From Ostreococcus lucimarinus (taxonomy: Eukaryota), in NCBI GenBank assembly GCA_000092065.1, contig CP000593.1: DNA of 64,000 nt. The stretch is one strand, 5' to 3'. The notes beneath the pieces were generated by a model, which had not been told where the DNA came from, ran no database searches, and worked only from the letters and a program-made list of their open reading frames with translations. Shown piece after piece: positions 31,932 through 59,225 of the stretch. Numbering within the stretch: position 1 is the first letter of the stretch; every line of letters begins with the position of its first letter. A program made the translations under genes and the position numbers.

Positions 31932-34542
31932 CTATCCGTTGAGCATGGCCTCGAGATCGATGTCGTTCTTCGACAACGTCTTGGCGCCGCCGAGCTTCAT
32001 CGGCGGCGGTTTGGCGCCTCCCATCGAGCGCACGCCGCCCCCGAGCGATCCACTCGACGGTGGACGGCGCACACCACCGATACTAGCGTGGCCGGTCGCC
32101 CCCATCGACCGCGCACCGCTGAATCCCGACGACGCGCGCGGCGCCTGGGACGGCGGCTTCGCCGACGGTTTCGGCGGCGCCGGAGCGCTCATGTCCTCGA
32201 ACAGGTCGTCGTCACCCCAACCATCGCTCTCGTGACTGGCCACTTTGGGTATGGATGTTTTCATCGGCGCTCGCGCGCTCGAACCCGCGCGTGAGTTCAA
32301 TCGCGCGCGGGCGGCTTCTTCCGCGGGATCGACGACGTCTAAATCGCCCCATCCGTCGTCGTCGTCGTCCTCCAAGTCTTCGTTCCCCATGGACAGCGCG
32401 CTCACCTTTTGTGCCGCCGCCTCGATCGTTCGGCGACTCGAGTCGTACGCGTTTGATGTCATGGCTTTCGCAGGCGATGGTCCAAGAGACGTCGCCGGCG
32501 TGTTTTGCGTCGAAGTTCGCGGGCTCTCGCCGTACAACTTCGGCGGCGGCGCCGCCGAACTGAATGATTTCGCCATCAATCGTTCATTCTGAAGATCAAC
32601 CGGTTCGTGCGCGTCATCTGGTCCGCCTATTTTCGTCGCTGCCATGTTCACAGCCCACGAAAGCATGTTTGCCGCGCGTTTAGCCGCGTTCGCGTGCCCT
32701 TTCTGTTGTTGCGCCTCGACGTGCGCCGCCGCCGCTTCGGGGCCGAGTTCGAGCGCCTCTGAGTGCCCTTTTAACCCTTGCACGTACAACTCAAGTACGG
32801 TGAACGCGCGCGTTCGCACGTCTTTTTCGATGTCCGTCATGAGCGGCGCGAGCGCTGGGATCAACCGCTGGCTCACTTCTAACGGTTCATAATATTGCGT
32901 CGTGTGCTCGAGCGCCATGAGACCCGCCAGTCGCGCGGGCGGAAATCCATCCTTGAGCGATCTTGTGAACGCGTTCAGCAACACCCGCTTCGCCGTCGCT
33001 TGACTCAAATACTTTGCGATGTTTCCTAGGCAAATCGTCGTGTTGGCGCGAATCGCCGGATCTTCATCAATCTGCAACTTGCTCAAATGCCTCAAAAGCG
33101 ACGCCGTGATGACGCGCTCGGAGAGTCGCGGCACCAACGTCAGCGCCCCCTTCAGCGTCATCTCGCGCACGTTGGAGTCGTTGTGCGCGAAGCCGGTCTG
33201 TAGACGTTCGTACAACGGATCATCCATCATGGCATCCGGCACGTGGTCGGCATATCGCGTCAAATTTTCCAACAAATCCAGTCGAATCATCTTATCCGGC
33301 GCCTCGTAAAGCTTCATGACCGTCGGGATGACGAGTTTTTGATACTGATCGCGCGGAACCTCCTCTGCGGCGAGGAGCATGGGTAAGATGGCTTGATGCG
33401 GCGCTTGATTAAACGACAGCGCGTCGCACAACATGGGTAAGATTTTCTTTTGCACGGGCGCCTGGGCGAGTTGCTCCAACACGCGCGGCAGGTGGCCGAA
33501 GAATCGTTCCTTTTCAATCGAATCCTTCAACGCCAAGTTGTTGATGAACGTGATCGTCTCCACGAGCTTGTTCGAAAACGCCTCTTTGTTCTCGATGAGC
33601 TTCTTCGGGTTGTACCGTCGCGCAGGTTGCGAGCCGAGAAGACGCTGATAATCCTTCAGCAGCGACTTTGGGATTTGATCAATCTCGCGCAACTGGTCCG
33701 TCCCGCGCAGAGCGCCGCCGCTGTACACCTCCTGAATCAAGCATCCCAACCCCCACGCGTCGATCGCCCACGGCGGCCCTTCGGGAATGATCACCCAGTC
33801 TCCCCTTCTGTACTCCTCCGGCTTGTATTGATCCGGCACCAGATACGCCCCGCGAATGAGCGCCGCGTCCCCGTTCACCCCGTGTCCGATGCTCTCCAGC
33901 TCGCTGCACAGATCGAACCCGTGTAACTTCCAGTCTAACCGCTCCGTCACCACCACCGCGCTCAGCCCGACCCCCCCGTGCACGAGCTTACAATCGTTGC
34001 TCAAGAACGCCACCGCCGTCGCGATTTCCCGCACCCCGAGCGAAAAATAATCATCCCTCTGCCCGTTCCCCCCCCCCCCGATCGGCGCCTCCCGCAGGTG
34101 CGCCTCCAGCGGCGTCACCGCCTCCGTCACGACGTGTATCGTCAGCTCGTTCCCGCTCTCGATCTCGATCACGTCCTTCACCAGCAGCACGTTTGGGTGT
34201 CGAAGCGTCTTCATCCGTCGCGCCCCGTTCTTCGCCAGCCTCACCCGCTGTTGATCGCGATTCACGTCCGCGTGAAACGTGAATATCGAGTGTTCCTCTC
34301 CCGTCTCCTGCGCGCGTTTCCTTTCGTCAATCATCGTCATCAGACGCATTCATTCATTCATTCATTCATTCATTCATTCATTCATTCACTCATCCTTCGC
34401 GTCGCGTCGCGTTCGTTCGTCGCACCTGGCACGTCCCGCGTCGGTGCGTCCACACGCCGAACGCGCGACACGCGAACTCGCGCCCGAGGTCGTACTTCAG
34501 CCTCGGTCCGCTCGCGAACAGGCTTCCGAGCGTGCCGAACAT
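31932..34542 (-). CDS. SCYL1: SCY1-like protein kinase (SCYL1/NTKL-type pseudokinase with C-terminal HEAT repeats). Two exons: 34542..34426 and 34307..31932.
   Basis: Exon 2 carries …SIFTFHADVNRDQQRVRLAKNGARRMKTLRHPNVLLVKDVIEIESGNELTIHVVTEAVTPLEAHL…, then a degenerate kinase fold, HEAT repeats and a Ser/Gly-rich tail. The upstream track ORF 34390..34926 ends MFGTLGSLFASGPRLKYDLGREFACRAFGVWTHRRGTCQ. This aligns with the plant SCYL1 N-terminus MFKFLKGVVGGSGTGLKDLPYNIGDPYPSAWGSWSHFRGTSKDDGSPVSIF, and the splice preserves its spacing: RGTCQ|ETGEEHSIF against RGTSKDDGSPVSIF. An alternative upstream ATG lies at 34605. Confidence 0.85.
34308..34425 (-). other. Spliceosomal intron (118 nt, phase 0) in SCYL1, containing a (TGAA)9 microsatellite.
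   Basis: Minus sense CAG|GTGCGACGAACGAACGCGACGCGACGCGAAGGATGA GTGAATGAA(TGAA)n…GCGTCTGATGACGATGATTGACGAAAGGAAACGCGCGCAG|GAG. GT at 34425-34424 and AG at 34309-34308. The repeat carries in-frame TGA stops, which is why the track splits the gene. Confidence 0.75.
34350..34392. repeat. (TTCA)n / (TGAA)n tetranucleotide microsatellite, about 9-10 units.
   Basis: cattcattcattcattcattcattcattcattcattcact read directly. Confidence 0.9.
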
Positions 34543-34651
34543 CGGATTCGACGCCTCGATCGGCGCGCCGATGTGACGCGCGCGCGCGTCGAATCGCGAC
34601 GCCATCGCGCGACGACGACGCGCGTCGCGCGTCGCGTCGGCGACGACGACG

Positions 34652-34741
34652 ATGGACGCCGCGACGCGCGACGACGACGCGCGACGCGCGGGCGCGACGA
34701 CGACCGCGATCGACGGCGACGACGACGACGACGGGACGCGC

Positions 34742-34778
<37 letters not shown>

Positions 34779-35638
34779 CGGCGACGACGGCGGTGAAGAC
34801 GCCGACGGGACGGGACGACGGCGACGATGGGTTTTGCCCGGCGTGGACGCGCCGCGGACGCGGGACGATCGCGAGCGCGGCGTGGCGACGACCGGCGCTG
34901 GCGGCGTGCTCGCTGGAGGATTTCACGTTTGATTTGATGCGGTTTCATCAGGAGCGAGGACGGGATTGGGAGCAGTGCTGGGCGAATTTGGATCGAGTCG
35001 TCGGGCGCACGGGTGCGCCGCTGGATTGCTTGCACCTGTACCGACAGGTGTGCTCGCTGGGGGGGTTCGCGTCGAGGACGAGCGCGAAGGAGCGAATCAA
35101 GGCGGCGGAGATTTTCAGAAACATGTTTAATCACTACGAAAATCACACGATGACGGATTGCGGGAATCGCATGCTGACGGCGTATGAGAATTATTTTTTG
35201 GAGTACGAGGCGGCGCACGAGGAGGATTTGACGCGCGGGACGTGCGGGAACTGCGGGGGGGGGATTCAAACGTCCATCGGAACGGTGGCGGATTTGCTGC
35301 ACGAGTGCGTCGGGTGCGAAAGAATGTTTCACGGACGGTGCCAACCGCCCGAGGTGTTTCCTCCGATCCACGGGGAGGGCAAGAACGCGGGGTGTTCGAC
35401 GCGCATCGTGTGCTTTGAATGCCGGGCAGGCGGCGCGTACGCCGCCTCGACCAAGTTGCTGCGCGACGAACGAGAGGACGCGGATTCGTACCAAACGCGA
35501 TTGTACGAATGCGTCGCGCGACGCGGTCGCCGGTATAAGAGCAGCTACGTGCGACCGACGCGAGCGATGGACGAAGGCGCGAAGCCGCCGTCGCCGACGG
35601 GCAACGATCCAGACGATGGTAGTAAAATGGATGACTGA
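34652..35638 (+). CDS. ARID/BRIGHT DNA-binding domain protein with a C-terminal PHD-like zinc finger; poly-Asp and poly-Thr tracts near the N-terminus.
   Basis: ARID-like segment (FTFDLMRFHQERGRDWEQCWANLDRVVGRTGAPLDCLHLYRQVCSLGGFASRTSAKERIKAAEIF). C4HC3-like finger (CGNCGGG…HECVGCERMFHGRCQPP…CFECR). A 13xThr run is encoded by (ACG)n at 34744-34780. Confidence 0.6.
34744..34780. repeat. (ACG)n microsatellite inside the ARID-PHD coding region (13xThr).
   Basis: acgacgacgacgacgacgacgacgacgacgacgacg read directly. Confidence 0.9.
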
Positions 35639-37802: not shown

Positions 37803-39035
37803 TCATTCTTTGGATTTCTTCTTCTTCTTCTTCTTCGGCGCGGCGTCGTCGACGGCGACGGCGCACTCGCGAATCTTCTTCTTCTTCTTCTTGGCTTTCT
37901 TTTCCGCGCGAGCGTCGTCGTCGTCGACGTCGGGCGCTCGTTTCTTCTTTTTTGACGATTTTTTGACGCTCGCCGCCTCAAACGCTGGCGTGTGGGCGTC
38001 GAAGACGATGGCCGTGAGCGGTTGCTTGGCGTACGCAGAGGCGACGCACTTGCGCGTCGCGGTGTCGTAGACGCGCACGTATTGATCCAAACCCGCGCAC
38101 GCCACGTGCGCGCCGTCGGGATGGACCGCGACTTGACGAATGCTCCCGGAGTTTCCCTTAAACTTCCCTCGCGTTTTTCCCGCGCGAAGATCGACGATTT
38201 CAAACATCCCGCGAGCGTTGGCGACGTACGCCTCGTAACCATCCGCCGAGCTCGCCACGCTCGTGATCACGCCCTTACCGACGTCCAAGTCCAGCACCGC
38301 GCGCTTATCCGCGCGCGTATCGTAGTGTCTAAATCTATGCTCTCCCGTGCCGACGAAGAAGCGCGCGCATTCGCTCGTCGACGCGAAACACGTCGCGCTC
38401 ACCCAAGGCGGCGCTCGGTACCCCAACCAATTTGGCGGAGGTGGTTTCGCCTTATACGTCCGTTTCTGTTCGTGTACGTCGTACACCACGACATCGTTCC
38501 CTTGGCCCTTACCTCCCAGCACCAATCTCCCCAATCTTGCGTCGAGATCGGAGCTCGTCGCGTCGCCGCACGCTCGAAACGTCCCGGTTTCTCGCCACGT
38601 TTCGTCGCCGTATTCATTCACGATTCCATGCACCCCAACCTCACCGTCGTCGTGCACGGCGACGACGTGCATGCGTTCCCACGACGTTCCACGCTCGTCT
38701 CCCTCGCACCACGCGTGCGCGTCGACGATTTCTTTCGACAGCGTCAACGTCGCCGTCGAGCGCGTCCCGCTCCTCGCCTCCATCACCTCCACCGCGCCGC
38801 CTTTTCGCGCGCACACCACCCGCGGTCCGCTCGCATCGCTCGCGCCGCGCAATTCGCACACCGCGCGCGCGCGCACCGCGCGTCGCGCGCGGTCGAGCGC
38901 GCCGAATTTCCCAATCAGCGTCAAGTCTTCGGCCGCGTCGCCGCCGGCGGCGGGGTCCGTGGCGAACGCGCGGACGTATCCGAGCTCGTCGCACGCGAGC
39001 ACGCGGATCGGGAGGTCGGTGTGCGGTGGTGCCAT
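37803..39035 (-). CDS. WD40-repeat protein with a Lys-rich C-terminal tail, WDR74/Nsa1-like (60S ribosome biogenesis).
   Basis: 410 aa. WD-like blades (…AGLDQYVRVYDTATRKCVASAYAKQPLTAIVFD resembles the last blade of WDR74). Tail SSKKKKRAPDVDDDDARAEKKAKKKKKKIRE…PKKKKKKKSKE. Confidence 0.55.
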   Translation of the reverse strand: MAPPHTDLPIRVLACDELGYVRAFATDPAAGGDAAEDLTLIGKFGALDRARRAVRARAVCELRGASDASGPRVVCARKGGAVEVMEARSGTRSTATLTLSKEIVDAHAWCEGDERGTSWERMHVVAVHDDGEVGVHGIVNEYGDETWRETGTFRACGDATSSDLDARLGRLVLGGKGQGNDVVVYDVHEQKRTYKAKPPPPNWLGYRAPPWVSATCFASTSECARFFVGTGEHRFRHYDTRADKRAVLDLDVGKGVITSVASSADGYEAYVANARGMFEIVDLRAGKTRGKFKGNSGSIRQVAVHPDGAHVACAGLDQYVRVYDTATRKCVASAYAKQPLTAIVFDAHTPAFEAASVKKSSKKKKRAPDVDDDDARAEKKAKKKKKKIRECAVAVDDAAPKKKKKKKSKE

Positions 39036-48201: not shown

Positions 48202-48360
48202 GGCGCGGGACGCGAACGCGAGCGCGCGCGATGCGAGGGACGGCGTCGACGACGCGGGATTCCGCGGCGTGGACGGACGACGATGATGGACGCGGGAGCG
48301 ATGCGAGACGGGATGCGGTGCGTGCGAGCGCGAGGAAGGGTGGACGCGCGCGCCGAGAGA

Positions 48361-48450
48361 CGACATCGACGAGACGAGACGAGACGAGACGAGACGAGGG
48401 TGGAGACGAGACGAGACGAGGCGAGGGTGGAAACGAGGGTGGAGACGAGT
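48361..48450. repeat. Tandem short repeats (GACGA)n and (GAGGGTGGA)n-like in the 5' flank of the HECT E3 gene.
   Basis: gagacgagacgagacgagacgagacgagggtggagacgagacgagacgaggcgagggtggaaacgagggtggagacgag read directly. Confidence 0.8.
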
Positions 48451-48500
48451 TTGTATGACTGACGATACGGTGGTTTCGAACGAGGCAGAGCCCGGCGGTT

Positions 48501-51500
48501 GTGGCGGTGGCGGAAGAGTTGCTCGCGTGCTCGCTGCCCGGTGGGGTGACGACGCGCGCGAGATTTGAGTGGAGGTACGGGAAGTGCGAGGAACGACACT
48601 GGGGCGACGTGTTCGCTCGATTCGCGGAGTACTTGACGCGCGAGGGTGTGCGCGCGATCGAAAATCGATGGATTCGCGATCGCGGCGACGATGCGTCGGA
48701 GCGAATCGAGGCGTTTGCGGCGGTGAATTGGATCATGGAGTTCATGCGAGAGATTGTAGAAAATTGCGGCGAATTGCCGTCGTTTGCGCACGGCGAGGCT
48801 ACGGCGTTGTTTTTGGAGTTCTTTGAAACGTGCGAGAGCGCGTTGCGGTTATTAGCGGCGGCGACGAGGCGATCCGTGGTTGGGCGAACGCCGCGTAACG
48901 CGTACTTTTCGTCGGACGTGTTTCAGCGGAGAGTGCGATTCATGCTTTCGAAGATTCACGCGCACATGCCGTTGAGCGCGGCGCACTTGAACGACGCCGA
49001 CGAGAACGAGTCGAAAGCCTGTGAAGTCGTTGCGCACGAGTTATTCGTTGCCGAAGACCGCGAAGAGGGAAGTGGTCCGTTAGATTGCACGCGATACGAG
49101 TTTACAGTCGACACGACGTCGAGTGGTAGCGATGAAATAGTCTTCAAGGCGTCTGGCCGACGGGGGCTCGACCCGTCCGAGATGCACCGGCCGTATAATC
49201 GCGCCTCGAGCCTTGAGTGCTTAATCGATGACTTTTCACGACCTCAAATGTTCGATCCGGGCAAAGAAATGGACTCTCTCAAAGACATCTCCGCGGCGTA
49301 TTTTGGTGTGTTGGCACAGTTGTGGAGCAAATCGCTGCAAAGGACGCGGGCGGGTCGCGAGAAGGCGGCGCGTCTTTCGATCCTCGCGCAGCAAATCAAC
49401 GTCCATCTAGGGAAAGGGGCGGAACCGAGCGATTTCGAGCTTTACGTTGAAGACGCGCAGACGACCGCAATCAAGCTGTTGGACTTGATGCAGGTAGATT
49501 TAGGAGTCACGCCGTCGTTGCTCCTACGACGAGACGCGACAACTTTGCTGAGCGCGTACACAAACGAACGCGCGAGCGGCTTTCAAGTTTGTCAAATCAT
49601 GAGACGGCCAGCCGGTCGAGGAGCGCTTAGTCAATGCGTATCAACGATGACGGCGGCGTTGCTTGCGCCGCTGTCATCAAGTGATGCGGAAATCGATTTC
49701 GACGTCGTTCGCGACGCGAGGTGTTTGATGCATCTTGTCGGGATTTTGAGCACAACAACGCCTGGGTGCACGGCGATAAGAGAGGCTGAGCTCCTTCCGC
49801 TTTTGATGTCAATTTTCAAGCTGGAGCGCCTCGAAGCGATCCCGGTGGTCGTGGACGTGGTGCATATCGTGGAATCGTATCTGGAGTTTCAACCCAACGC
49901 GGTCGTAGCGTTTAGAGAGTTGAACGGAACGGATTTGCTTTTGAAGCGCATGCGATACGAGTCCGTTACGGCGATCGAGGAGCTGCGGGCGTCGGGACAT
50001 CTCGATGACGTGGCGGATAGAAAACGAAAAATAGATAGTCTTTCTAGTTTAGAGGACGCCGAAACATCGCTCGCAGCGATGAAAAAGGCACCAAAGTACG
50101 TGAACTTTTATCGAAGAGTTTTGATCAAGGTTCTGATGCGAACATTGGCGTACACGAGTTTTGCGTACGGAGGAGCACGCATGCGAGTTCCCGGACTTTC
50201 GGATGGGACGTTGACTGATATCTTGGGAAGTGTATTGAAATACCCTCTCAAGTTTGGTCCTGGGGTGTCGTCGCTCACCGCGAATTTAGTGTGCGACGTC
50301 ATTCATAACGAGCCGACGTGTTACGCCACGCTAGACGAAGCCGGTATTGTGGACGCATTCCTGAAGTTTATCACTGAAACCATGTGGCCACTCGGCCGTA
50401 GTAAGGGTATGGCTAAAGTACTTTGCGCGATACCGACGACACTTAACGCGATATGTTTGAACGAGAAAGGGCAGGAAAAAGTGTTGAAGTCTTCGGCGTT
50501 GGTCTGCTTTCGAAAAATGTTTCAAGATAGTTCTTTCCCGTTGAACGCCGATACGTCGAGAATCGTCGGAACTGGGATCAACGAGACGCTGCGCCACATT
50601 CCAGCACTAAAAGACGTCAGTGTCGAAGTCTTGAACGACATATTGTCCGATCTCACGATACAACTTCGAAAGATATCAGATTCGGAGACGAATCTTGAGC
50701 ACGCGTTCGTCAACAAGGCAGTCGTCGAGCAAATGCCAATATCGAAAACGCTTCAAAATGTGGCGAGGTTCATGGATGGTATTTTGCAGACTTCGCATAT
50801 GTGCGCGCCGCTGGTTCAAGCTGGGGCTCTGGATTCCATGCTCAATATGTTGACATGCCCTCTTCCGGTTGAATTTTCGACATGTGCAAGCTACAACTCC
50901 ATCAGTGTCGCGTGCAAATCGCTCATTAACCCGCCGGATCCCAGCAACTCGTATGCCGGCGCGAACACGCCGAATCTGTCAGACGACGTGATTCTCGCGT
51001 GCACTACCGTCGTTGAAAAGTATATGGCCTCTGCTGTTGATATCGGTGTGCAGATTGAAGAGTTTTACGTCCACGAGCTCGACAAGACAGGTGATGACAT
51101 CGATAAATTAGCGACGTACGATATTTACAGCAAGACATTGAGCGAAAAGCACAAAGGTGACAAAGCAGCGTTGGACCGCGAAGTTCGGTTCTGTCGACAG
51201 ACAAAATCACTGTGCCAGCGCATGGCTGCGCACGAAAGGTTGTGTGAACTTCTCGCGACTCTCGTGCAGCAAGTTCCGGTGATGTCTGCTGCTATCATGA
51301 ATAAGCGACGTGACGATCCTCACGGCCCGATGATGGCCGAAAGCTTGTTCAACGCAGCGTTGGCGGCGTTCAATGAAGCGGTAAAGATTGAAGCGAAGCT
51401 TCGTTCACTCGCAGTGGAAATTCAAGCGGATGAAATGCCGTATTCACCGGTTTGGTGGCTGTACACTCGAGCGGATCTTTTTGTACGAGTTACAAGTGGT

Positions 51501-54500
51501 TTGTTTGCCGCGGTGGCAAAACTTTCGACAACGATGCGGCGACGTAAAGACTTGGGTCCAGAAGCTCAAAATTTCATCAAGCTTAGCGGAGAAGCAATAA
51601 TTGCAGTTGCGCGCGAGATGACCAAAGCGTTTACGTCTCGTGTCACCGCACAGGCTGAGCTACTTCCGCCGAGTCACGCATCGAATGCTAAGATGGATTT
51701 TGAACAGCGCTGCTCGCACAATTTCCTTGCGTTGATTTACGAATCATTCTTCGATGACAAGAGAAATTCACCGAACGGGGTCATGATCAACTACGCCGCT
51801 CGATGTGGGTTATTCGAGCAACTTTACACCCATTTTCAAGGCACGGTGGCTCTGACACAGAGTATATTAGAAACGTGCACCGGGGAAAAGGCTGAGCAAG
51901 GACATGTCGCAGCGGAATGTTACAGGACGTTGAGCTGCTTTGTGCGCATTTTCGTCTCTATATCCGACGTCAAATTGATGGCATCGAACAACTCGAATAA
52001 GCTCGCGCTTGGTACACGTCTTCCCGAACGCGTAGAAGATGATCCTATCTACGACAAGATGACAAAGTACACACATATTTCTGACGCGTTCACTAACTCA
52101 AGATCTGCCATGGACTGGATTCATTGCTCTCTAAATGAAGCGTTGAAGTGTATTTGGCGGCCAGAAACGGACATTTTTGCGTCCGTAGCGGCAGGTCATG
52201 TGGATTCCGACGCACTAGTGCAGTGTCTACTCAACATCATTAGTGGAACCGAACAAGCCGTCATGTCCGAGCAACGTCGTGCCGCGTCGGTACCGCGTGC
52301 TCCACCGCGCCCGCCGCCACGGCAGTTTGTTCCATCAGAGACGATGATAGATTCCATCGTTGAGATGGGATTCAGCAGAGGTCACGCGCATCACGCACTC
52401 GCAGCTGTGAATGGACAGAGTGTGGAGAGAGCGCTCGAGTACATGCTAACTCGACCAATGGAAGATGTGCCCGACGAAGCACCGACGGCGCCTTCAGAAC
52501 CTGCACCGTCAGAGTCTACTGCGCTAGAGGAGACGGCGGACGCTATGGAAACAGCTCCTGTTGCTTTCAATCACACGCACGCAGTCCAAGGTCGACTGCC
52601 TGCCATAAACGAGCTAGTTGCCGCGCTGTACGCCAATTTCCACATCAGTGCAGAGAAAGGTGCGACGCTTTTGCTCAAGGTTATTGAGAAACATGAGCTC
52701 ATGAGCGGCCTCAGTCGTGATGAGTGCATATACGCTCTCACGGACGAAGTCGTGCGCACGCGTACGCCGAAGATCGGTAGAGATGAGGTGTATGCGATCA
52801 AGCACTATGCGTTCGTTGAGGCGCTCGCTAGGCAAGGTGATGAAGTGTTAAGAAGAGCGCTATGGATAAAGGGTTCGGTAATTGATTCACAAGTCGAAAC
52901 ATTTATCGCCGAGGTCGACAAAATCTGCGCTGCACAAAAGACGGCCTCATTGGAGACGTTTTTAAAAGATGTGCCGTTGTCGTTTGTGCCTTTGGCAAAC
53001 TGCATCAATGCTGCGGCATGCCTGCAAAAGCATCGTGACTCCGACGCCAGTGCCAGAAATTACTCCAAGTTCGGTTTTCTGAACGACGGTCATAAGATTG
53101 CGTTGGCCGATGCGTGCGTCGAGTGCTTGATAGCAATCGTTAAAAATTCAGGCGAACTCGCGAGTGATTATGAATCGCACTCCGTCCAAGCCGTGATTCT
53201 TGATCTGCTAGCAAATCTATCACGTGACAACGTGATTGCGGATCGCATCGCTTCGAATTCATTCGCCGACAGCAAGGATGGAGCCGCAATATCTAAGAGA
53301 AGTTTTGCACACACGCTCTTTACATGCTTTTGGAACAACACCAACGACAGTGTTTCGGTCATTTTGAGGCACATGGTGAACGATCCCCGGACATTACAAT
53401 TCGCCATGGAGCTTGAAATTGTCAAGAGCATCACCAAGCCTCCGATGGGTAGAGACTCCAAGGTTGCACTCAAGACATTCTGCGTCGCCATGAAAAATAT
53501 AATTGAGCGAGATTTTGATTGCTTTGAAGCGGCATTCGCAAACGTCGCCGAAATCAGAACTATGGCGGATACACCGCTGAGTACACCTCGGGAGTACGTC
53601 ATCCCGACGGCTGAAGTGAAAGCAATGCAGTCGCTTCCAACCGTTCGATTGACAAAGAACTTAAGAATGGTCGTGGAAGTACTTGTTGCAGTAGCGACAG
53701 AGCCGATTCATCAAGCCCCATTGACGAAGCTCGAGCGACAAGCCGCAGCTTTCCGTCTGCTCACCGAATTGGTTGAGGTATATCCATCAAGTGTGAAGGC
53801 TTTGATGGATATGGACGACCAGACTGACATTTTCCGCAACATTCTTCGTTATCAACTGCCGTCGAGCAGAAGAAGTTCCTCAAGTGAACAGACGGGAGTT
53901 TGGTGCGGGTGCGAAAACGCGGCGTTCTTCCTCGCAACTTTATGCGTCAACAGCCAAAAAGCGCGAACGAAAATAATTGAGAAAATGCTTGTGCTTCTGA
54001 AGGAGCCGGACTTAACGCAAGAAACAGCTTCAACTTGCGCCGATAAAGGTGATTCTCTAGTTCCAAAGCACGCATTTGTGGATTTATTGCACTCTCTTAT
54101 GGATTACGGTTTGGCGCGTGGCTATCAGAGCGGTGAACGCATTCGCAATCGGGTAGTCTTTAATCTCCAACAAGGAGTTCTTAAGACGATGTACAGTCTA
54201 AAAGTCCCAGAGCGGATCATTGAACTCATTGAAGAGACAAACGTCGTTGGCGCTGCGCGCGAAAAACGTGGCAATCCAGGATTTCTTCGAGTAACGCTCG
54301 CAGTACTCGAAGCTCTAGTTGTTCGATCTACTAAGAGCAAACGCGAAAGCAGGCTTACTCGCATCGGTAACATGGTTCGTGCGGTAAACGCTGCACGGGT
54401 ACCCAGCGGTGAGGAAGTTGAAGAGAGACGCGCACTAACCGAGCAGATGCTCCAGAATTTGCTTGAACACGCTGCAGGAGGAAACATTCAAGTCGCTCGA

Positions 54501-57500
54501 CTCGAAGATGACCTCGACGGAATGCCAGAAATCGAAGGTGTTCATCCTGTATTCGGAGGAGACGATGGCGATGCCGACGGCATCGATGCAAATGATGGTC
54601 ACGAGAACTCGGACGATGATTCTGAGATGGAGGTTGACGACGACCACGACCACGATTCCGATGAAGCCAACGAAGAAGGAATGCACGAATCCTCAGACGA
54701 AGAACAATTGAGCGAATCGGGCGAATCAGGTGAATCAAGTGGAACGAGCGACTCAAGCGAAGAGGACTCTGAAGAGGAAGAAGAAGAAGATGATGAAGAA
54801 GGCGAAGAAGCCATGGCAGATGACTTTTACGGAAGCGACATGGATCACATCGATCCTGATCCTGGAAACGATGTCTTGGAAATGTCTGACGATGCTTTGT
54901 ATGACGAAGATGGTGAGGAGTTCGATTATGATGATGGCGGTGGTTCCGATGATGACGATGACGACGATGAAGAGGAAGGCGATTTTGAAGAACCTAGCTC
55001 GCCACAGTCATCATATACGTCGCCGTCTGGGGTACGCGTGCTGCCTCGCGCTACACATTCAGGCAGTCATGTTGAACGCACATCCAATCTTGGTTCGAGG
55101 GATCACATTTCTGTCTCGAGAGCCCAGGTTGAAGCATGGTTCGCCACAGATTACTCTAGCGTCATGTCAGGTGCCGATCCGAGAGTCGAGGCACAGACAG
55201 TTGGCGAACTGCAGATTGCAGGAGGGCAACGAGCACAAGTTTCCACAGAGGACGAAAGACAGCAGACACTCAGCGAATCTCGTTCTGAGGGACAACTACG
55301 GGGACATAATCGCGAGCACTCTCCTCGTTCTTCTTCTGTGAATGCTTCCGAACTCTTCAATCGTAGAGATGTGCCTTTTACTTCGTCTCTTCGTGAACAA
55401 ACACAAAGAATTGCACGCGCGACCCTGGGTGACCCTTCACTTCTTGCGAGAGGAAATCCTCCGGTGCATGGCAGTCCCTGGCACACGTGGTCGCAATCCG
55501 AAACGGGCGTTCCGCCTGCGTTGAACCACGAAGGCATTAACGTGCAAAGAGTCGGCACGAGTTTAAATATCACTCTCTCGACACCCATGGATTTTAGTTC
55601 GAGATCTCGCTCGTTGCACGACGTGCTCAATTCTATCAGCGGGGAAATGGCTCGCTTGGCCGTTCGTCCATCGCATTTAGAAATTTTGGATCCTTTATCG
55701 TCGGCAAAAGCAATCCTGTGGCTCGGGGATGGATCCTTTCAGGCAACAGCACCGGCTGAATTCAGCGTTCGGAATCAAACAATTTGGAGCCTTGATGGAA
55801 GGAATGCCCGAGCAAGTTTCTGGTCAAACGCAGTGTGCATGAGTATCGGCGAGTCTTTGGCGACTTCTGGTACTTTTTTGTCCCATTTGGACACCGCGGA
55901 ACTCGCGACATCGTCATTGGTTTCCAGTGAGCGAGACAAGGAAAACGTCAACGGAAATCTGGCAGAAATCGTGGACGAATCGCCCGAAGAGCGGACAGCG
56001 CGACAACGCCGAGAAGCGGCGGCACTGGACATAAGCGCAAATGAGCTCTCCATGGTTACAGAAGATTTACGAGATGGATTTTTGAATGCGAATAGACTAG
56101 TTGCCCGTGCGCGCGAGCAAGCACCGGAAGCTGCTAGCGACCTCAACTTGATCGGCGCTGAGTTTCTTAGCGCCATGCCAGCCGATATTCAGCGCGAGTT
56201 GATACAACGCACTACCTCCGGAGCAAACAGATTGTTGACGAGGATTCAGCATACCGAAGCCAGTCCTTCGGTATCCGCGCCTCGGCCTCGTGCAAATAGC
56301 CCAACAACTACAGTGATAGACACTGCGCCGTTGGAGATTGGAAATATGATGTTTGGTGAAGGCTGGGATGGCCGTCTAGACCGTCACGAGCAAATGTCAT
56401 GGAATGACATCGAGCGAATCCGTCAGTCGTCAACGCGCGACGCAGTCGCTCCAGAAGATTTCAAGCCGTTAAAAGTGAACGTCGAATTGCGCCATCAGCA
56501 TATTCGAACGTTGTTGCTTTTGTTCTTTGTTCAGACTATCGACTTAAAGGATACTGTGAACAAAATATGTGTAAACTTGTGCGTGGTGGACCAAAACCGC
56601 GAGTCAATTTTGCGCCAGATTATCGAAACTGTGATCATGAACACGATGGATCGTGCTGATCCTCGTTTCATCGAGTCCACTTTGAGTTCTCCTAACGCCA
56701 AGGGTCTTGAGCCAAGCGCGGCGATGGAAGTAGCCATGGCGCGCTCGCTGTGCGCGAATCTGAGCGAGCGTAACGGAGCACGCAAGGAGATGGTGACGAG
56801 ACGACTTTTGACGCTTCTGTCGCAACTCATTAGTCGAAACAGGCACGTACATGGGACATATCGCGTTCGTGGCGTTAATTTGACGTGCGTGAAACTTTTC
56901 TTTGCGAAGGATGAGGACGCAAGTATGGTAAACTTTCTCACAAATCAGAAGGAGAATGGCGAAGCTGTGTTGCGATCTGACGCTGGCGTGAGCACCGTGG
57001 ATATACCACTCCTTTCTTTCCTGGTCGGACTTCTCGCACACGCATCGCAATTTCATGACCAAAAGAATATTGAGCTGTGCGCGACGTGCACTGACGCTTA
57101 CCTCACAAAGTTTCTTGCGGCTACGCCCAAACCCAACATCGGGCCCAAAGGCTTGTCAACCGCCGCCACCCCTGAACTTTTGGCGAGTATAGCAAGCTTT
57201 CTCAAGGTTCCATATCTCGCCCCGAGTGCGTACGAGAAAATCAACACTATACTACAAAAAGTTTTAGGCGACTTCTTTGAAGAGGGATGCGACGCAGTCA
57301 TACTGAATCGATTCCATGCCGATGCCCTGCAGTGCTCGGTTGAAGCCATCGCGTGCTTGTCGAAGGCGTCGTCGATCAAGTACAGACCAAATGTCGATGA
57401 ACCATCCGCACGACACGTTGAGTACGCCGACTCGCGTCAATCCCTGAAAACGCATATTCCTTATTTGCGTCGCCTGACGGATTGTTTTCTTCAGGTTCTG

Positions 57501-59225
57501 ACGTACTTGGATGGAAAAGACAGCCGTTTCCAAAAAGCTTTCAAGGATAAAGCGAAGGAAGAGTTGATACGATATCATGATGCGCTCCGTCCGTTTTGGC
57601 AGATGATGAACGTCTATGCAAGTCTCATGCAAGACATTACTAGCGATGAAAGCGGTGATGCATCGATCCTGTGCGAACGCTCGCACGCTAGCGCCGCGCT
57701 GACTGAGGGTATAACGACGTACTTGATGATTGGAACGAGCCTCTATCCATACGTCGAAGGTGAAGTTTCGAAGAGCAGACGAGAATCCGGTGCGTTTCAG
57801 CTCCCTGCTCTCGCTGGTTCGATGAGAGCACCCTCGCCTGCGATGGGTATGCGAGCGTCGCATGCATCGCATGGGTCTTTGCATCGTACGTCGAGTCACA
57901 TGCTCGACGCACTTTCAAATTCTGGAGGGAAAAATGCGAAAGTCGCCGCCATATTGAGCGACATTTGGGCGTTTGTCGAGCAACACAGAAACATGCTCAA
58001 CGACATGCTGAAGCAACGCCCGCTGTTGCTTTCCGGACCCATGAAAATCCTGTTGAGCAATCCACGCTTGCTGGACTTCTCCGTCAAACGTGCGGAGATT
58101 CGGACACGAATCAAGAAACTTCGCGAACGCCTAGGACATAATCGTCCAGAGGCGCGAACGTTACACATTAGGCGTGATCGAATACTCGAAGACTCGTTTA
58201 GACAACTCAACAGCCGGAGTATCGAAGAAATTCGAGGCAAAATCAGCATCGTTTTCGTGGGCGAAGAAGGCATGGACGGTGGCGGTTTGATAAAGGAGTG
58301 GTTCACCATCTTGGCACGAGAAGTTTTCAATCCAAACATCGCTCTCTTCGAGTTGTCTCACGACAAGGGATGCTATCAGCCGAATCAAAACAGTGTGGTC
58401 CATCCGGATTATCTCAGCTATTTTAGATTCGTCGGTAGACTCGTCGGTAAGGCTTTGTTCGACGACATTCTCCTCAACGCATACTTCACGCGTCCGATTT
58501 ACAAGCACCTTCTCGGTCAGCAGCTCACATACGAAGACATGGAAGGTGTAGATCCAGATTATTACAAGAGCTTGAAATGGATGCTGGAGAACTCTGTGGA
58601 GGGTGTCATGGAATACACATTCAGCGACACAACGTCTTATTTTGGTGAAACTCAAGTTCACGATTTGACCGAAAACGGACGAAATATCGCAGTGACAGAT
58701 GCAAACAAGTTTGAATACGTCAACCTGATAACCGCGCACCGAATGACGAATGCGGTGAAGGACCAACTCGCTGCTCTCGTGAAGGGGTTTGAAGAAGTTG
58801 TCCCTAGAGAAACGATTTCCATCCTGAATGCGTCTGAATTGGAACTGCTCATAAGTGGTACCCCGGACATCGACGTCGAGGATTTACGCGCCAATACTGA
58901 ATACACCGGCTTCACCGTCGGGTCAAAACAAATTCAATGGTTTTGGGACGTCGTGAGGGAAATGAACAAGGAAGACTTGGCGCGCTTATTGATGTTTTGT
59001 ACCGGTACCTCTAAGGTTCCTTTGGATGGATTCGGTGCTTTGCAAGGCATGCAAGGCCCGCAACGTTTTCAAATCCATCGGCAGCACGCGGATGATTCAA
59101 AGTTGCCATCCGCACACACGTGCTTCAATCAACTCGATTTGCACGAATACAGCTCAAAGCAAATCTTACGCGACAGGCTGCTGTACGCGATTGTTGAAGG
59201 TTGTGAAGGCTTTGGCTTCATTTAG
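48501..59225 (+). CDS. Giant HECT-domain E3 ubiquitin ligase, HUWE1 / plant UPL1-UPL2 type (DUF908/DUF913 ARM-like N-terminus, UBA domain, long acidic tract, C-terminal HECT).
   Basis: Uninterrupted ORF of 3574 aa. N-terminal FEWRYGKCEERHWGDVFARFAEYL (DUF908-like). UBA (ETMIDSIVEMGFSRGHAHHALAAVNGQSVERALEYMLTRP). Acidic D/E/S tract around 54530-54990. Canonical HECT C-lobe (…FTVGSKQIQWFWDVVREMNKEDLARLLMFCTGTSKVPLDGFGALQGMQGPQRFQIHRQHADDSKLPSAHTCFNQLDLHEYSSKQILRDRLLYAIVEGCEGFGFI). Confidence 0.9.
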   Translation: MAVAEELLACSLPGGVTTRARFEWRYGKCEERHWGDVFARFAEYLTREGVRAIENRWIRDRGDDASERIEAFAAVNWIMEFMREIVENCGELPSFAHGEATALFLEFFETCESALRLLAAATRRSVVGRTPRNAYFSSDVFQRRVRFMLSKIHAHMPLSAAHLNDADENESKACEVVAHELFVAEDREEGSGPLDCTRYEFTVDTTSSGSDEIVFKASGRRGLDPSEMHRPYNRASSLECLIDDFSRPQMFDPGKEMDSLKDISAAYFGVLAQLWSKSLQRTRAGREKAARLSILAQQINVHLGKGAEPSDFELYVEDAQTTAIKLLDLMQVDLGVTPSLLLRRDATTLLSAYTNERASGFQVCQIMRRPAGRGALSQCVSTMTAALLAPLSSSDAEIDFDVVRDARCLMHLVGILSTTTPGCTAIREAELLPLLMSIFKLERLEAIPVVVDVVHIVESYLEFQPNAVVAFRELNGTDLLLKRMRYESVTAIEELRASGHLDDVADRKRKIDSLSSLEDAETSLAAMKKAPKYVNFYRRVLIKVLMRTLAYTSFAYGGARMRVPGLSDGTLTDILGSVLKYPLKFGPGVSSLTANLVCDVIHNEPTCYATLDEAGIVDAFLKFITETMWPLGRSKGMAKVLCAIPTTLNAICLNEKGQEKVLKSSALVCFRKMFQDSSFPLNADTSRIVGTGINETLRHIPALKDVSVEVLNDILSDLTIQLRKISDSETNLEHAFVNKAVVEQMPISKTLQNVARFMDGILQTSHMCAPLVQAGALDSMLNMLTCPLPVEFSTCASYNSISVACKSLINPPDPSNSYAGANTPNLSDDVILACTTVVEKYMASAVDIGVQIEEFYVHELDKTGDDIDKLATYDIYSKTLSEKHKGDKAALDREVRFCRQTKSLCQRMAAHERLCELLATLVQQVPVMSAAIMNKRRDDPHGPMMAESLFNAALAAFNEAVKIEAKLRSLAVEIQADEMPYSPVWWLYTRADLFVRVTSGLFAAVAKLSTTMRRRKDLGPEAQNFIKLSGEAIIAVAREMTKAFTSRVTAQAELLPPSHASNAKMDFEQRCSHNFLALIYESFFDDKRNSPNGVMINYAARCGLFEQLYTHFQGTVALTQSILETCTGEKAEQGHVAAECYRTLSCFVRIFVSISDVKLMASNNSNKLALGTRLPERVEDDPIYDKMTKYTHISDAFTNSRSAMDWIHCSLNEALKCIWRPETDIFASVAAGHVDSDALVQCLLNIISGTEQAVMSEQRRAASVPRAPPRPPPRQFVPSETMIDSIVEMGFSRGHAHHALAAVNGQSVERALEYMLTRPMEDVPDEAPTAPSEPAPSESTALEETADAMETAPVAFNHTHAVQGRLPAINELVAALYANFHISAEKGATLLLKVIEKHELMSGLSRDECIYALTDEVVRTRTPKIGRDEVYAIKHYAFVEALARQGDEVLRRALWIKGSVIDSQVETFIAEVDKICAAQKTASLETFLKDVPLSFVPLANCINAAACLQKHRDSDASARNYSKFGFLNDGHKIALADACVECLIAIVKNSGELASDYESHSVQAVILDLLANLSRDNVIADRIASNSFADSKDGAAISKRSFAHTLFTCFWNNTNDSVSVILRHMVNDPRTLQFAMELEIVKSITKPPMGRDSKVALKTFCVAMKNIIERDFDCFEAAFANVAEIRTMADTPLSTPREYVIPTAEVKAMQSLPTVRLTKNLRMVVEVLVAVATEPIHQAPLTKLERQAAAFRLLTELVEVYPSSVKALMDMDDQTDIFRNILRYQLPSSRRSSSSEQTGVWCGCENAAFFLATLCVNSQKARTKIIEKMLVLLKEPDLTQETASTCADKGDSLVPKHAFVDLLHSLMDYGLARGYQSGERIRNRVVFNLQQGVLKTMYSLKVPERIIELIEETNVVGAAREKRGNPGFLRVTLAVLEALVVRSTKSKRESRLTRIGNMVRAVNAARVPSGEEVEERRALTEQMLQNLLEHAAGGNIQVARLEDDLDGMPEIEGVHPVFGGDDGDADGIDANDGHENSDDDSEMEVDDDHDHDSDEANEEGMHESSDEEQLSESGESGESSGTSDSSEEDSEEEEEEDDEEGEEAMADDFYGSDMDHIDPDPGNDVLEMSDDALYDEDGEEFDYDDGGGSDDDDDDDEEEGDFEEPSSPQSSYTSPSGVRVLPRATHSGSHVERTSNLGSRDHISVSRAQVEAWFATDYSSVMSGADPRVEAQTVGELQIAGGQRAQVSTEDERQQTLSESRSEGQLRGHNREHSPRSSSVNASELFNRRDVPFTSSLREQTQRIARATLGDPSLLARGNPPVHGSPWHTWSQSETGVPPALNHEGINVQRVGTSLNITLSTPMDFSSRSRSLHDVLNSISGEMARLAVRPSHLEILDPLSSAKAILWLGDGSFQATAPAEFSVRNQTIWSLDGRNARASFWSNAVCMSIGESLATSGTFLSHLDTAELATSSLVSSERDKENVNGNLAEIVDESPEERTARQRREAAALDISANELSMVTEDLRDGFLNANRLVARAREQAPEAASDLNLIGAEFLSAMPADIQRELIQRTTSGANRLLTRIQHTEASPSVSAPRPRANSPTTTVIDTAPLEIGNMMFGEGWDGRLDRHEQMSWNDIERIRQSSTRDAVAPEDFKPLKVNVELRHQHIRTLLLLFFVQTIDLKDTVNKICVNLCVVDQNRESILRQIIETVIMNTMDRADPRFIESTLSSPNAKGLEPSAAMEVAMARSLCANLSERNGARKEMVTRRLLTLLSQLISRNRHVHGTYRVRGVNLTCVKLFFAKDEDASMVNFLTNQKENGEAVLRSDAGVSTVDIPLLSFLVGLLAHASQFHDQKNIELCATCTDAYLTKFLAATPKPNIGPKGLSTAATPELLASIASFLKVPYLAPSAYEKINTILQKVLGDFFEEGCDAVILNRFHADALQCSVEAIACLSKASSIKYRPNVDEPSARHVEYADSRQSLKTHIPYLRRLTDCFLQVLTYLDGKDSRFQKAFKDKAKEELIRYHDALRPFWQMMNVYASLMQDITSDESGDASILCERSHASAALTEGITTYLMIGTSLYPYVEGEVSKSRRESGAFQLPALAGSMRAPSPAMGMRASHASHGSLHRTSSHMLDALSNSGGKNAKVAAILSDIWAFVEQHRNMLNDMLKQRPLLLSGPMKILLSNPRLLDFSVKRAEIRTRIKKLRERLGHNRPEARTLHIRRDRILEDSFRQLNSRSIEEIRGKISIVFVGEEGMDGGGLIKEWFTILAREVFNPNIALFELSHDKGCYQPNQNSVVHPDYLSYFRFVGRLVGKALFDDILLNAYFTRPIYKHLLGQQLTYEDMEGVDPDYYKSLKWMLENSVEGVMEYTFSDTTSYFGETQVHDLTENGRNIAVTDANKFEYVNLITAHRMTNAVKDQLAALVKGFEEVVPRETISILNASELELLISGTPDIDVEDLRANTEYTGFTVGSKQIQWFWDVVREMNKEDLARLLMFCTGTSKVPLDGFGALQGMQGPQRFQIHRQHADDSKLPSAHTCFNQLDLHEYSSKQILRDRLLYAIVEGCEGFGFI

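Follow-up and report, generated by a model that had tools for sequence, protein, structure and literature searches.

The SCY1-like pseudokinase gene of the picoeukaryote Ostreococcus lucimarinus lies on the minus strand of a 64,000-nucleotide stretch of contig CP000593.1 (assembly GCA_000092065.1), referred to here as the window. It very probably consists of two coding exons separated by a 118-nucleotide (nt), phase-0 GT-AG intron that carries a polymorphic (TGAA)n microsatellite. A preliminary description of the same DNA had proposed that the called start of the long open reading frame (ORF) at 31932..34349, MRLMTM, sits inside the TGAA repeat, and that the true N-terminus is to be found in the tail of an upstream ORF. 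Both proposals held up: the called ATG (34349..34347) is made of the final A of the final TGAA unit followed by TG, and the upstream peptide aligns with SCY1-like N-termini from O. tauri to rice. The features of the locus are as follows.

34542..34426, minus strand: coding part of exon 1 of the SCY1-like gene, 117 nt or 39 codons, MFGTLGSLFASGPRLKYDLGREFACRAFGVWTHRRGTCQ (MFGTLG...RRGTCQ)
34425..34308, minus strand: putative spliceosomal intron, 118 nt, phase 0, GTGCGAC...GCGCAG
34419..34425, minus strand: putative 5' splice site GTGCGAC, with GT at 34425/34424
34308..34310, minus strand: putative 3' splice site CAG, with AG at 34309/34308
31932..34307, minus strand: exon 2, 2376 nt including the stop codon; the rest of the predicted pseudokinase domain, HEAT repeats and a low-complexity tail
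34349..34392, minus strand: microsatellite, TGAG + (TGAA)10 on the coding strand and (CATT)n on the plus strand, by direct count and Tandem Repeats Finder
34347..34349, minus strand: start ATG of the ORF callers (MRLMTMIDERK...), inside the intron and in frame with exon 2
34325..34344, minus strand: candidate branch-point region, from its sequence compared with the published consensus (PMC2483917)
34603..34605, minus strand: upstream in-frame ATG, a possible alternative start that would add MASRFDARARHIGAPIEASNP

Gene structure and protein family

Exon 1 opens with the ATG at 34542..34540 on the minus strand. Once the 118-nt interval is removed, base 34307 falls in frame with the long ORF, giving a spliced SCY1-like product of 830 amino acids (aa) with the junction ...RRGTCQ|ETGEEHSIF.... 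The GT/AG pair at 34425..34308 is the only one that restores the reading frame and the conserved spacing of the N-terminal residues together; an alternative AG, that of GAAAG lying 13 nt before the 3' site, was rejected since it would shift the frame. As had been claimed, the interval carries in-frame stops: if the unspliced sequence is read on in the frame of exon 1, a TGA comes after 11 codons, with further stops beyond.

When compared with named homologues, the spliced product gave expect values (E) of 1e-155 to 1e-169 at 38-47% identity, the names being SCY1-like protein 1, N-terminal kinase-like protein, probable inactive serine/threonine-protein kinase scy1, and cytoplasmic tRNA export protein. 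Yeast Cex1p (PDB 3vwa) matched residues 55-557 at E 6.5e-25, the HEAT family (PF02985) scored 29.6 bits against a cut-off of 23.5, with one repeat above the cut-off, and the HEAT scaffolds of PP2A-A matched at E 2.5e-7. The position of the catalytic loop is occupied by LVHGGV, without the HRD aspartate, as expected for a predicted pseudokinase.

Conservation of the N-terminal peptide across the junction

The first ~110 residues of the window product were aligned with those of 14 homologues, giving 15 sequences in total: five from Ostreococcus-like lineages (manually spliced), O. tauri, three distant prasinophyte-type proteins, two algal or protist proteins, and those of Klebsormidium, rice and moss. 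From G29 to F48, across the splice junction, this alignment is free of gaps, and six of its columns (G12, G29, W31, H33, S46 and F48) are invariant. The distance from W31 to S46 equals that in the rice protein P0037 (WTHHRGTSKDDGSPVSIF) and in the other 13 homologues, without a gap, which agrees with the earlier assertion that splicing reproduces the exact spacing of the plant peptide RGTSKDDGSPVSIF. Alignment of the spliced N-terminus with orthologues had been named as a check on that assertion, and it recovered the SCYL1 N-terminal block at fixed spacing. The block itself, M-F/L ... G.W.H.RG ... VS[IV]F, is found at this spacing only in the spliced product. In O. tauri the corresponding sequence of XP_003082766.1 is uninterrupted (MSGMFGSIGSLFATGPRLRYDL...WTHAGGTSRESGERVSVFTF) and begins with MSGMFGSIGSLFATGPRLRYDLDERPHDARSLGRWTHAGGTSRESGERVSVFTF.

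The structural position of the exon-1 peptide was examined in an AlphaFold2 model of the O. tauri-type orthologue P0003, built from a 24-sequence alignment, with a mean predicted local distance difference test score (pLDDT) of 65 overall and of 82-88 in the 10-residue blocks that span residues 31-60. The N-lobe of the model is rich in strands, with helices after it, and residues from about 300 to 560 are all-helical. Two consecutive strands, at residues 32-39 (WTHAGGTS) and 45-54 (RVSVFTFRGD), with block pLDDT of 85-88, map respectively to W31-C38 of the window protein, encoded by exon 1, and to the exon-2 residues just past the junction. The model places the N-terminal segment and the predicted first beta strand of the pseudokinase N-lobe in exon 1. 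The splice junction, and with it the intron, is predicted to fall in the beta1-beta2 hairpin, because the two P0003 strands correspond to exon 1 and to early exon 2. A protein begun at MRLMTM would, on this model, lose the first strand of the N-lobe.

The probable intron in related lineages

Five relatives of the window protein (representatives P0002 and P0004-P0007, 72-79% protein identity) have all been called as N-truncated ORFs. In the DNA of the corresponding loci (L011, L012, L015, L018 and L019) an exon encoding MF(G/N)...W.H.R.., 117 or 120 nt long, is followed by GTGCG, the 5' end common to the homologous introns of all five relatives. These introns measure 115-201 nt, end in CAG or TAG, and interrupt the gene at an identical codon boundary, (Q/K)|(E/D). 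Between lineages, exon 1 aligns gap-free at 65-77% nucleotide identity, its differences being concentrated at third codon positions (90, vs 58 and 55 at the other two). The introns are of unequal length, and gapped global alignment brings them to 44-59% identity; their sequence thus appears to have little or no detectable conservation between lineages.

At the O. tauri-type loci L021 and L022 (about 2001-2160) the coding sequence is continuous and the intron is exactly absent. Distant full-length homologues (P0009, P0010, P0012, P0019 and P0020), on contigs of up to 1.07 Mb, are likewise called as single ORFs. The view that the 118-nt GT..AG interval is an intron, put forward in the preliminary description, gains from both observations, its position being kept in five Ostreococcus-like lineages and the interval being gone from O. 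tauri. The intron is common to six Ostreococcus lineages; in O. tauri it was either lost or never present. This presence and absence within a single genus offers a clean case for the study of intron loss and gain in an intron-poor genome.

A polymorphic TGAA microsatellite within the probable intron

Tandem Repeats Finder reports the array at 34347..34393 as 11.8 copies of period 4 with 95% matches and a score of 87. By direct count it holds ten perfect TGAA units and one TGAG, so that the earlier figure of about nine units was a small undercount. A 12-nt probe, TGAATGAATGAA, allowed one mismatch, gave nine matches in the window, all at the array, vs 0.25 expected from shuffled sequence. The TGAA repeat is the sole period-4 array of the window, the remaining tandem repeats being nearly all G+C-rich and of CG, CGA or CGT type.

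Two consequences follow from the composition of the repeat unit. A pure (TGAA)n run contains only the dinucleotides TG, GA, AA and AT; because it holds neither GT nor AG, its expansion is unable to make cryptic splice sites. It also puts TGA and ATG in all three frames, and therefore an unspliced mRNA would terminate after 50 codons.

Variation was surveyed in 15 same-species contigs from independent metagenomes, comprising ten long contigs with the 805-aa ORF (L001-L010) and five JGI contigs picked with a search pattern tied to the intron flanks. The array was expected from the outset to be a source of length polymorphism, and among the 14 readable environmental contigs, whose flanks are identical and which encode the same or nearly the same SCY1-like protein, it is indeed one, with 8, 9, 9, 9, 10, 11 (five contigs), 12, 13, 15 and 16 units. 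Intron length accordingly runs from 106 to 138 nt in 4-nt steps and takes all three residues modulo 3. Interrupted variants of the repeat (TGCA, TGGA, AGAA and CGAA) also occur, and several contigs have them in common. Exon 1, by comparison, is 117 nt long and open in 15 of the 15 contigs, with just two amino-acid variants, Y17H (seen twice) and V30A (once). Among L001-L010, which were chosen without reference to the intron flanks, the intron does not vary on either side of the repeat (the 3' flank is 41 nt). Length steps of 4 nt between intact coding parts fit a non-coding interval flanked by two constrained exons, and these steps leave the protein unaffected because the repeat is intronic. 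With at least eight length classes, plus interrupted variants, in 14 readable contigs, the array could serve as a highly variable single-locus marker for O. lucimarinus.

Two further observations concern the repeat. In contig L007 (JGI Ga0078893_10016925, about 1940-2000) runs of N coincide exactly with the microsatellite and also cover a part of the intergenic region upstream, which suggests that assemblers break at the variable TGAA repeat. In locus L019 (1827-1979, 72% protein identity) the homologous intron has (TGAA)4 right after the 5' splice site GTGCGA, and in L020 it has five units including one TGAG variant; each of these two introns also carries a (GAT)7 run, and one substitution separates them inside the TGAA run.

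Splice signals

The introns of O. lucimarinus have been characterised by Irimia and Roy (2008; PMC2483917), who report a 5' consensus GTGCGTG and a branch motif GACTGACG. Among the introns outside chromosome 2 that are confirmed by expressed sequence tags (ESTs), ACTGAC is present in 87%, GACTGACG in 66.5%, and the relaxed form WCTRAY in 93% (PMC2483917). The median intron length of the species is 111 nt, as we read an unlabelled row of Table 2 in that work. The 5' end of the SCY1-like intron, GTGCGAC, agrees with the consensus at five of seven positions, with AC in place of TG at +6/+7. Two candidate branch motifs lie near its 3' end: TCTGAT (34344..34339), of the WCTRAY class, with its A at 32 nt from the 3' splice site, and GATTGACG (34332..34325), which matches GACTGACG at seven of eight positions, with its A at 19 nt. 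Three of the relatives carry branch motifs of the form GACTGAC(G/C), with exact GACTGACG in L015 and L018 and GACTGACC in L011. Judged by sequence, the branch motif seems to be the one feature off the species norm, and the length of 118 nt appears typical.

A mobile or introner-like repeated intron was also considered and rejected for the window, where a search of the 64 kb with the 41-nt 3' part of the intron, at up to three mismatches, found a single copy.

Weighing of the alternatives

A number of results speak against the two-exon structure. The exact 42-nt exon 1-exon 2 junction had no match in the JGI collection of metagenome and metatranscriptome contigs, and the first 99 residues of the spliced protein gave eight matches among cluster representatives, each covering the exon-2 part only or the exon-1 ORF only and none spanning the junction. 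This protein search scored cluster representatives only, and a spliced member inside cluster P0001 could be hidden. By exact look-up, neither the 830-aa product nor its 851-aa variant (see below) is present in a collection of 15 billion proteins. The two Pfam kinase models score below their cut-offs (PK_Tyr_Ser-Thr, 22.8 bits against 23.1; Pkinase, 18.9 against 31.7) and begin at profile position 37, which corresponds to residue 55, short of exon 1; counting back by the profile offset would put the start of the kinase-like fold close to residue 19, within exon 1. The exact motif ACTGAC was not found in the 118-nt intron. The context of ATG 34542 is weak, with C at -3 and T at +4.

This last point bears on a variant of the same two-exon gene that would start at ATG 34605..34603, yielding 851 aa with a 21-residue lineage-specific extension, and which we regard as possible, though rather unlikely. 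The frame from this upstream ATG is free of stops down to 34542, its context is better (G at -3 and G at +4), and the ATG with the next 63 nt is kept in all 15 contigs with three substitutions and no insertion or deletion (indel), indels being found further upstream; O. tauri, too, has in-frame ATGs upstream of MFG (P0135, MSGMFG, and the ORF call P0137). However, none of the homologues has anything corresponding to the extension, in SCY1-like proteins of both algae and plants the start is at the MF motif or within three residues of it, the 851-aa sequence is missing from the protein collection, and long open frames arise by chance in G+C-rich DNA. The ATG of the divergent ARID gene at 34652, moreover, leaves ~110 nt for two 5' untranslated regions (UTRs), so the transcription start may well lie below 34605. 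The population variation over 34543-34605, three substitutions and no indel, is uninformative on the choice of start codon. As an observation in its own right, this near-invariant segment (minus strand) could be coding, 5' UTR, or a promoter element common to the divergent ARID gene.

Two other readings depart from efficient splicing. If there were no intron, the gene would have one exon only, with its start at 34349 (MRLMTM...) or 34340 (MTMIDERK...), and the MFGTLG frame would be untranslated or form a separate small upstream ORF. The 805-aa ORF (172 contigs of the collection; named 'SCY1-like protein 1' in JGI/IMG) and the 802-aa ORF (70 contigs) are what every metagenome gene caller produced, the spliced form did not appear in the JGI contig scan or the representative-protein search, and the branch-point motif is off consensus. 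Metagenome gene callers, however, are unable to model introns. The upstream frame encodes a peptide whose conservation extends from Ostreococcus as far as rice and whose spacing over the junction is exact; in O. tauri this peptide runs straight on into the remainder of the protein, and in the P0003 model it makes up the first strand of the N-lobe sheet. The frame is undamaged in 15 of 15 haplotypes and five other lineages, whereas the DNA between the two coding parts diverges freely, and MRLMTMIDERKRAQ has no counterpart in homologues. We consider the absence of an intron extremely improbable. An intron that is real but spliced inefficiently, or in a manner dependent on repeat length, is also highly improbable. 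Retention would then give a 50-aa peptide, or use of the repeat-derived ATG an N-truncated protein, and the microsatellite would tune the dosage or isoform ratio of the SCY1-like protein; alleles of 8-16 units would differ in how often the intron is retained or in how much full-length protein is made relative to the N-truncated form, making the TGAA array a 'tuning knob' of evolution in a eukaryotic genome that is among the most compact. The non-consensus branch motif in a species whose intron signals are very strict, the in-frame ATG at the 3' end of the repeat, and the recurrence of a TGAA run in the homologous intron of the L019/L020 lineage (~72% protein identity) are consistent with such a role. 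Four other relatives, on the other hand, have no comparable repeat, the broad spread of copy number together with the interrupted variants resembles neutral drift, and the in-frame ATG is not kept across the relatives: P0005 and P0007 start at V, within exon 2.

We therefore favour the two-exon gene with an intron, and infer that splicing takes place and that translation initiates at ATG 34542. On this account the U2-type spliceosome would remove an ordinary 118-nt intron and join RRGTCQ to ETGEEHSIF. The TGAA array would change length by replication slippage, the presumed mutational mechanism, and such changes would be tolerated since the array is spliced out. ORF-based callers begin at the repeat-derived in-frame ATG, so that the first 39 residues would be lost.

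Neighbouring genes and a second candidate exon

Two neighbouring ORFs correspond exactly to annotated proteins of O. lucimarinus CCE9901, a 410-aa ORF at 37806..39035 on the minus strand to XP_001421163.1, and the divergent 328-aa ARID ORF at 34652..35635 on the plus strand to XP_001421012.1. The ARID-domain gene (34652-35638) contains a coding (CGA)n / GACGAC low-complexity run at 34641-34827 (plus strand), and among same-species metagenome contigs its product, where complete, varies from 326 to 333 aa. This run is a coding trinucleotide length polymorphism beside the intronic tetranucleotide one.

Elsewhere in the window, a single ORF of 3574 aa with a HECT-like domain at its end occupies 48501-59225 (plus strand), in a region with a G+C content of 0.49-0.51, vs 0.60-0.70 in most of the window. 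Ahead of it, at 48283-48317 (plus strand), lies a short ORF, ATGATGGACGCGGGAGCGATGCGAGACGGGATGCG, followed by GTGCGTG at 48318, which makes it a candidate for a second missed first exon. GACGA/GAGAC tandem repeats then extend over 48368-48449 (plus strand), followed by an exact GACTGACG branch motif and an AG at 48484. A splice from 48318 to 48484 would be in frame with the 3574-aa HECT-type ligase ORF listed from 48501, and the segment 48283-48500 (plus strand) is likely to be a second missed first exon with a repeat-bearing 5' intron.

Discussion

The two-exon model would correct the ORF-caller model of a conserved trafficking and tRNA-export pseudokinase in a reference picoeukaryote genome. 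The same error extends beyond this genome: prokaryote-style ORF calling gave a truncated product in six of the six intron-bearing Ostreococcus lineages examined, and all public metagenome-derived representatives (P0001, P0002 and P0004-P0007) are N-truncated. Several of these are named 'SCY1-like protein 1' and are without the first 39-40 residues and, with them, the predicted first strand of the kinase-like fold. The element itself is a spliceosomal intron of ordinary type whose microsatellite is polymorphic, and it leaves the current understanding of introns and microsatellites unchanged.

Among the introns of O. lucimarinus outside chromosome 2 (PMC2483917), the SCY1-like intron is at home in its GT-AG ends, its 5' GTGCG, its near-median length and its 5'-proximal position in a gene otherwise without introns, whereas it differs from them in having degenerate forms of the branch motif only.

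With the SCY1-like protein 1 family, which includes human SCYL1/NTKL, yeast Cex1p and the plant proteins named scy1 or cytoplasmic tRNA export protein, the window protein shares a predicted N-terminal kinase-like domain followed by HEAT repeats and, after splicing only, the N-terminal G.W.H.RG....G..VS(I/V)F block. It is unlike the family in that its Pfam kinase scores fall under the cut-offs, and in its C-terminus, ...DIDLEAMLNG, a form common to its prasinophyte relatives. A further comparison is with the O. tauri orthologue (XP_003082766.1 / Q00WN8_OSTTA, 834 aa), which is represented in its cluster by P0003; that representative shares 74% identity with the spliced protein, 100% of which is covered. 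The two genes share a neighbourhood of AAA ATPase, ARID, SCY1-like and dual-specificity phosphatase genes, as well as a homologous N-terminal peptide. Unlike that of O. lucimarinus, the O. tauri gene has no intron at the site and, for that reason, no microsatellite.

As a repeat, the array invites comparison with TH01, a highly polymorphic (AATG)n/(TCAT)n repeat that lies in intron 1 of the human gene for tyrosine hydroxylase, has alleles of roughly 5-11 units and has been reported to have a regulatory effect. Both are AATG/CATT-class tetranucleotides in a first intron with a similar range of alleles (8-16 units here), but the sense strand reads TCAT in the tyrosine hydroxylase gene and TGAA/AATG in the SCY1-like gene, and the two genes and their lineages are unrelated.

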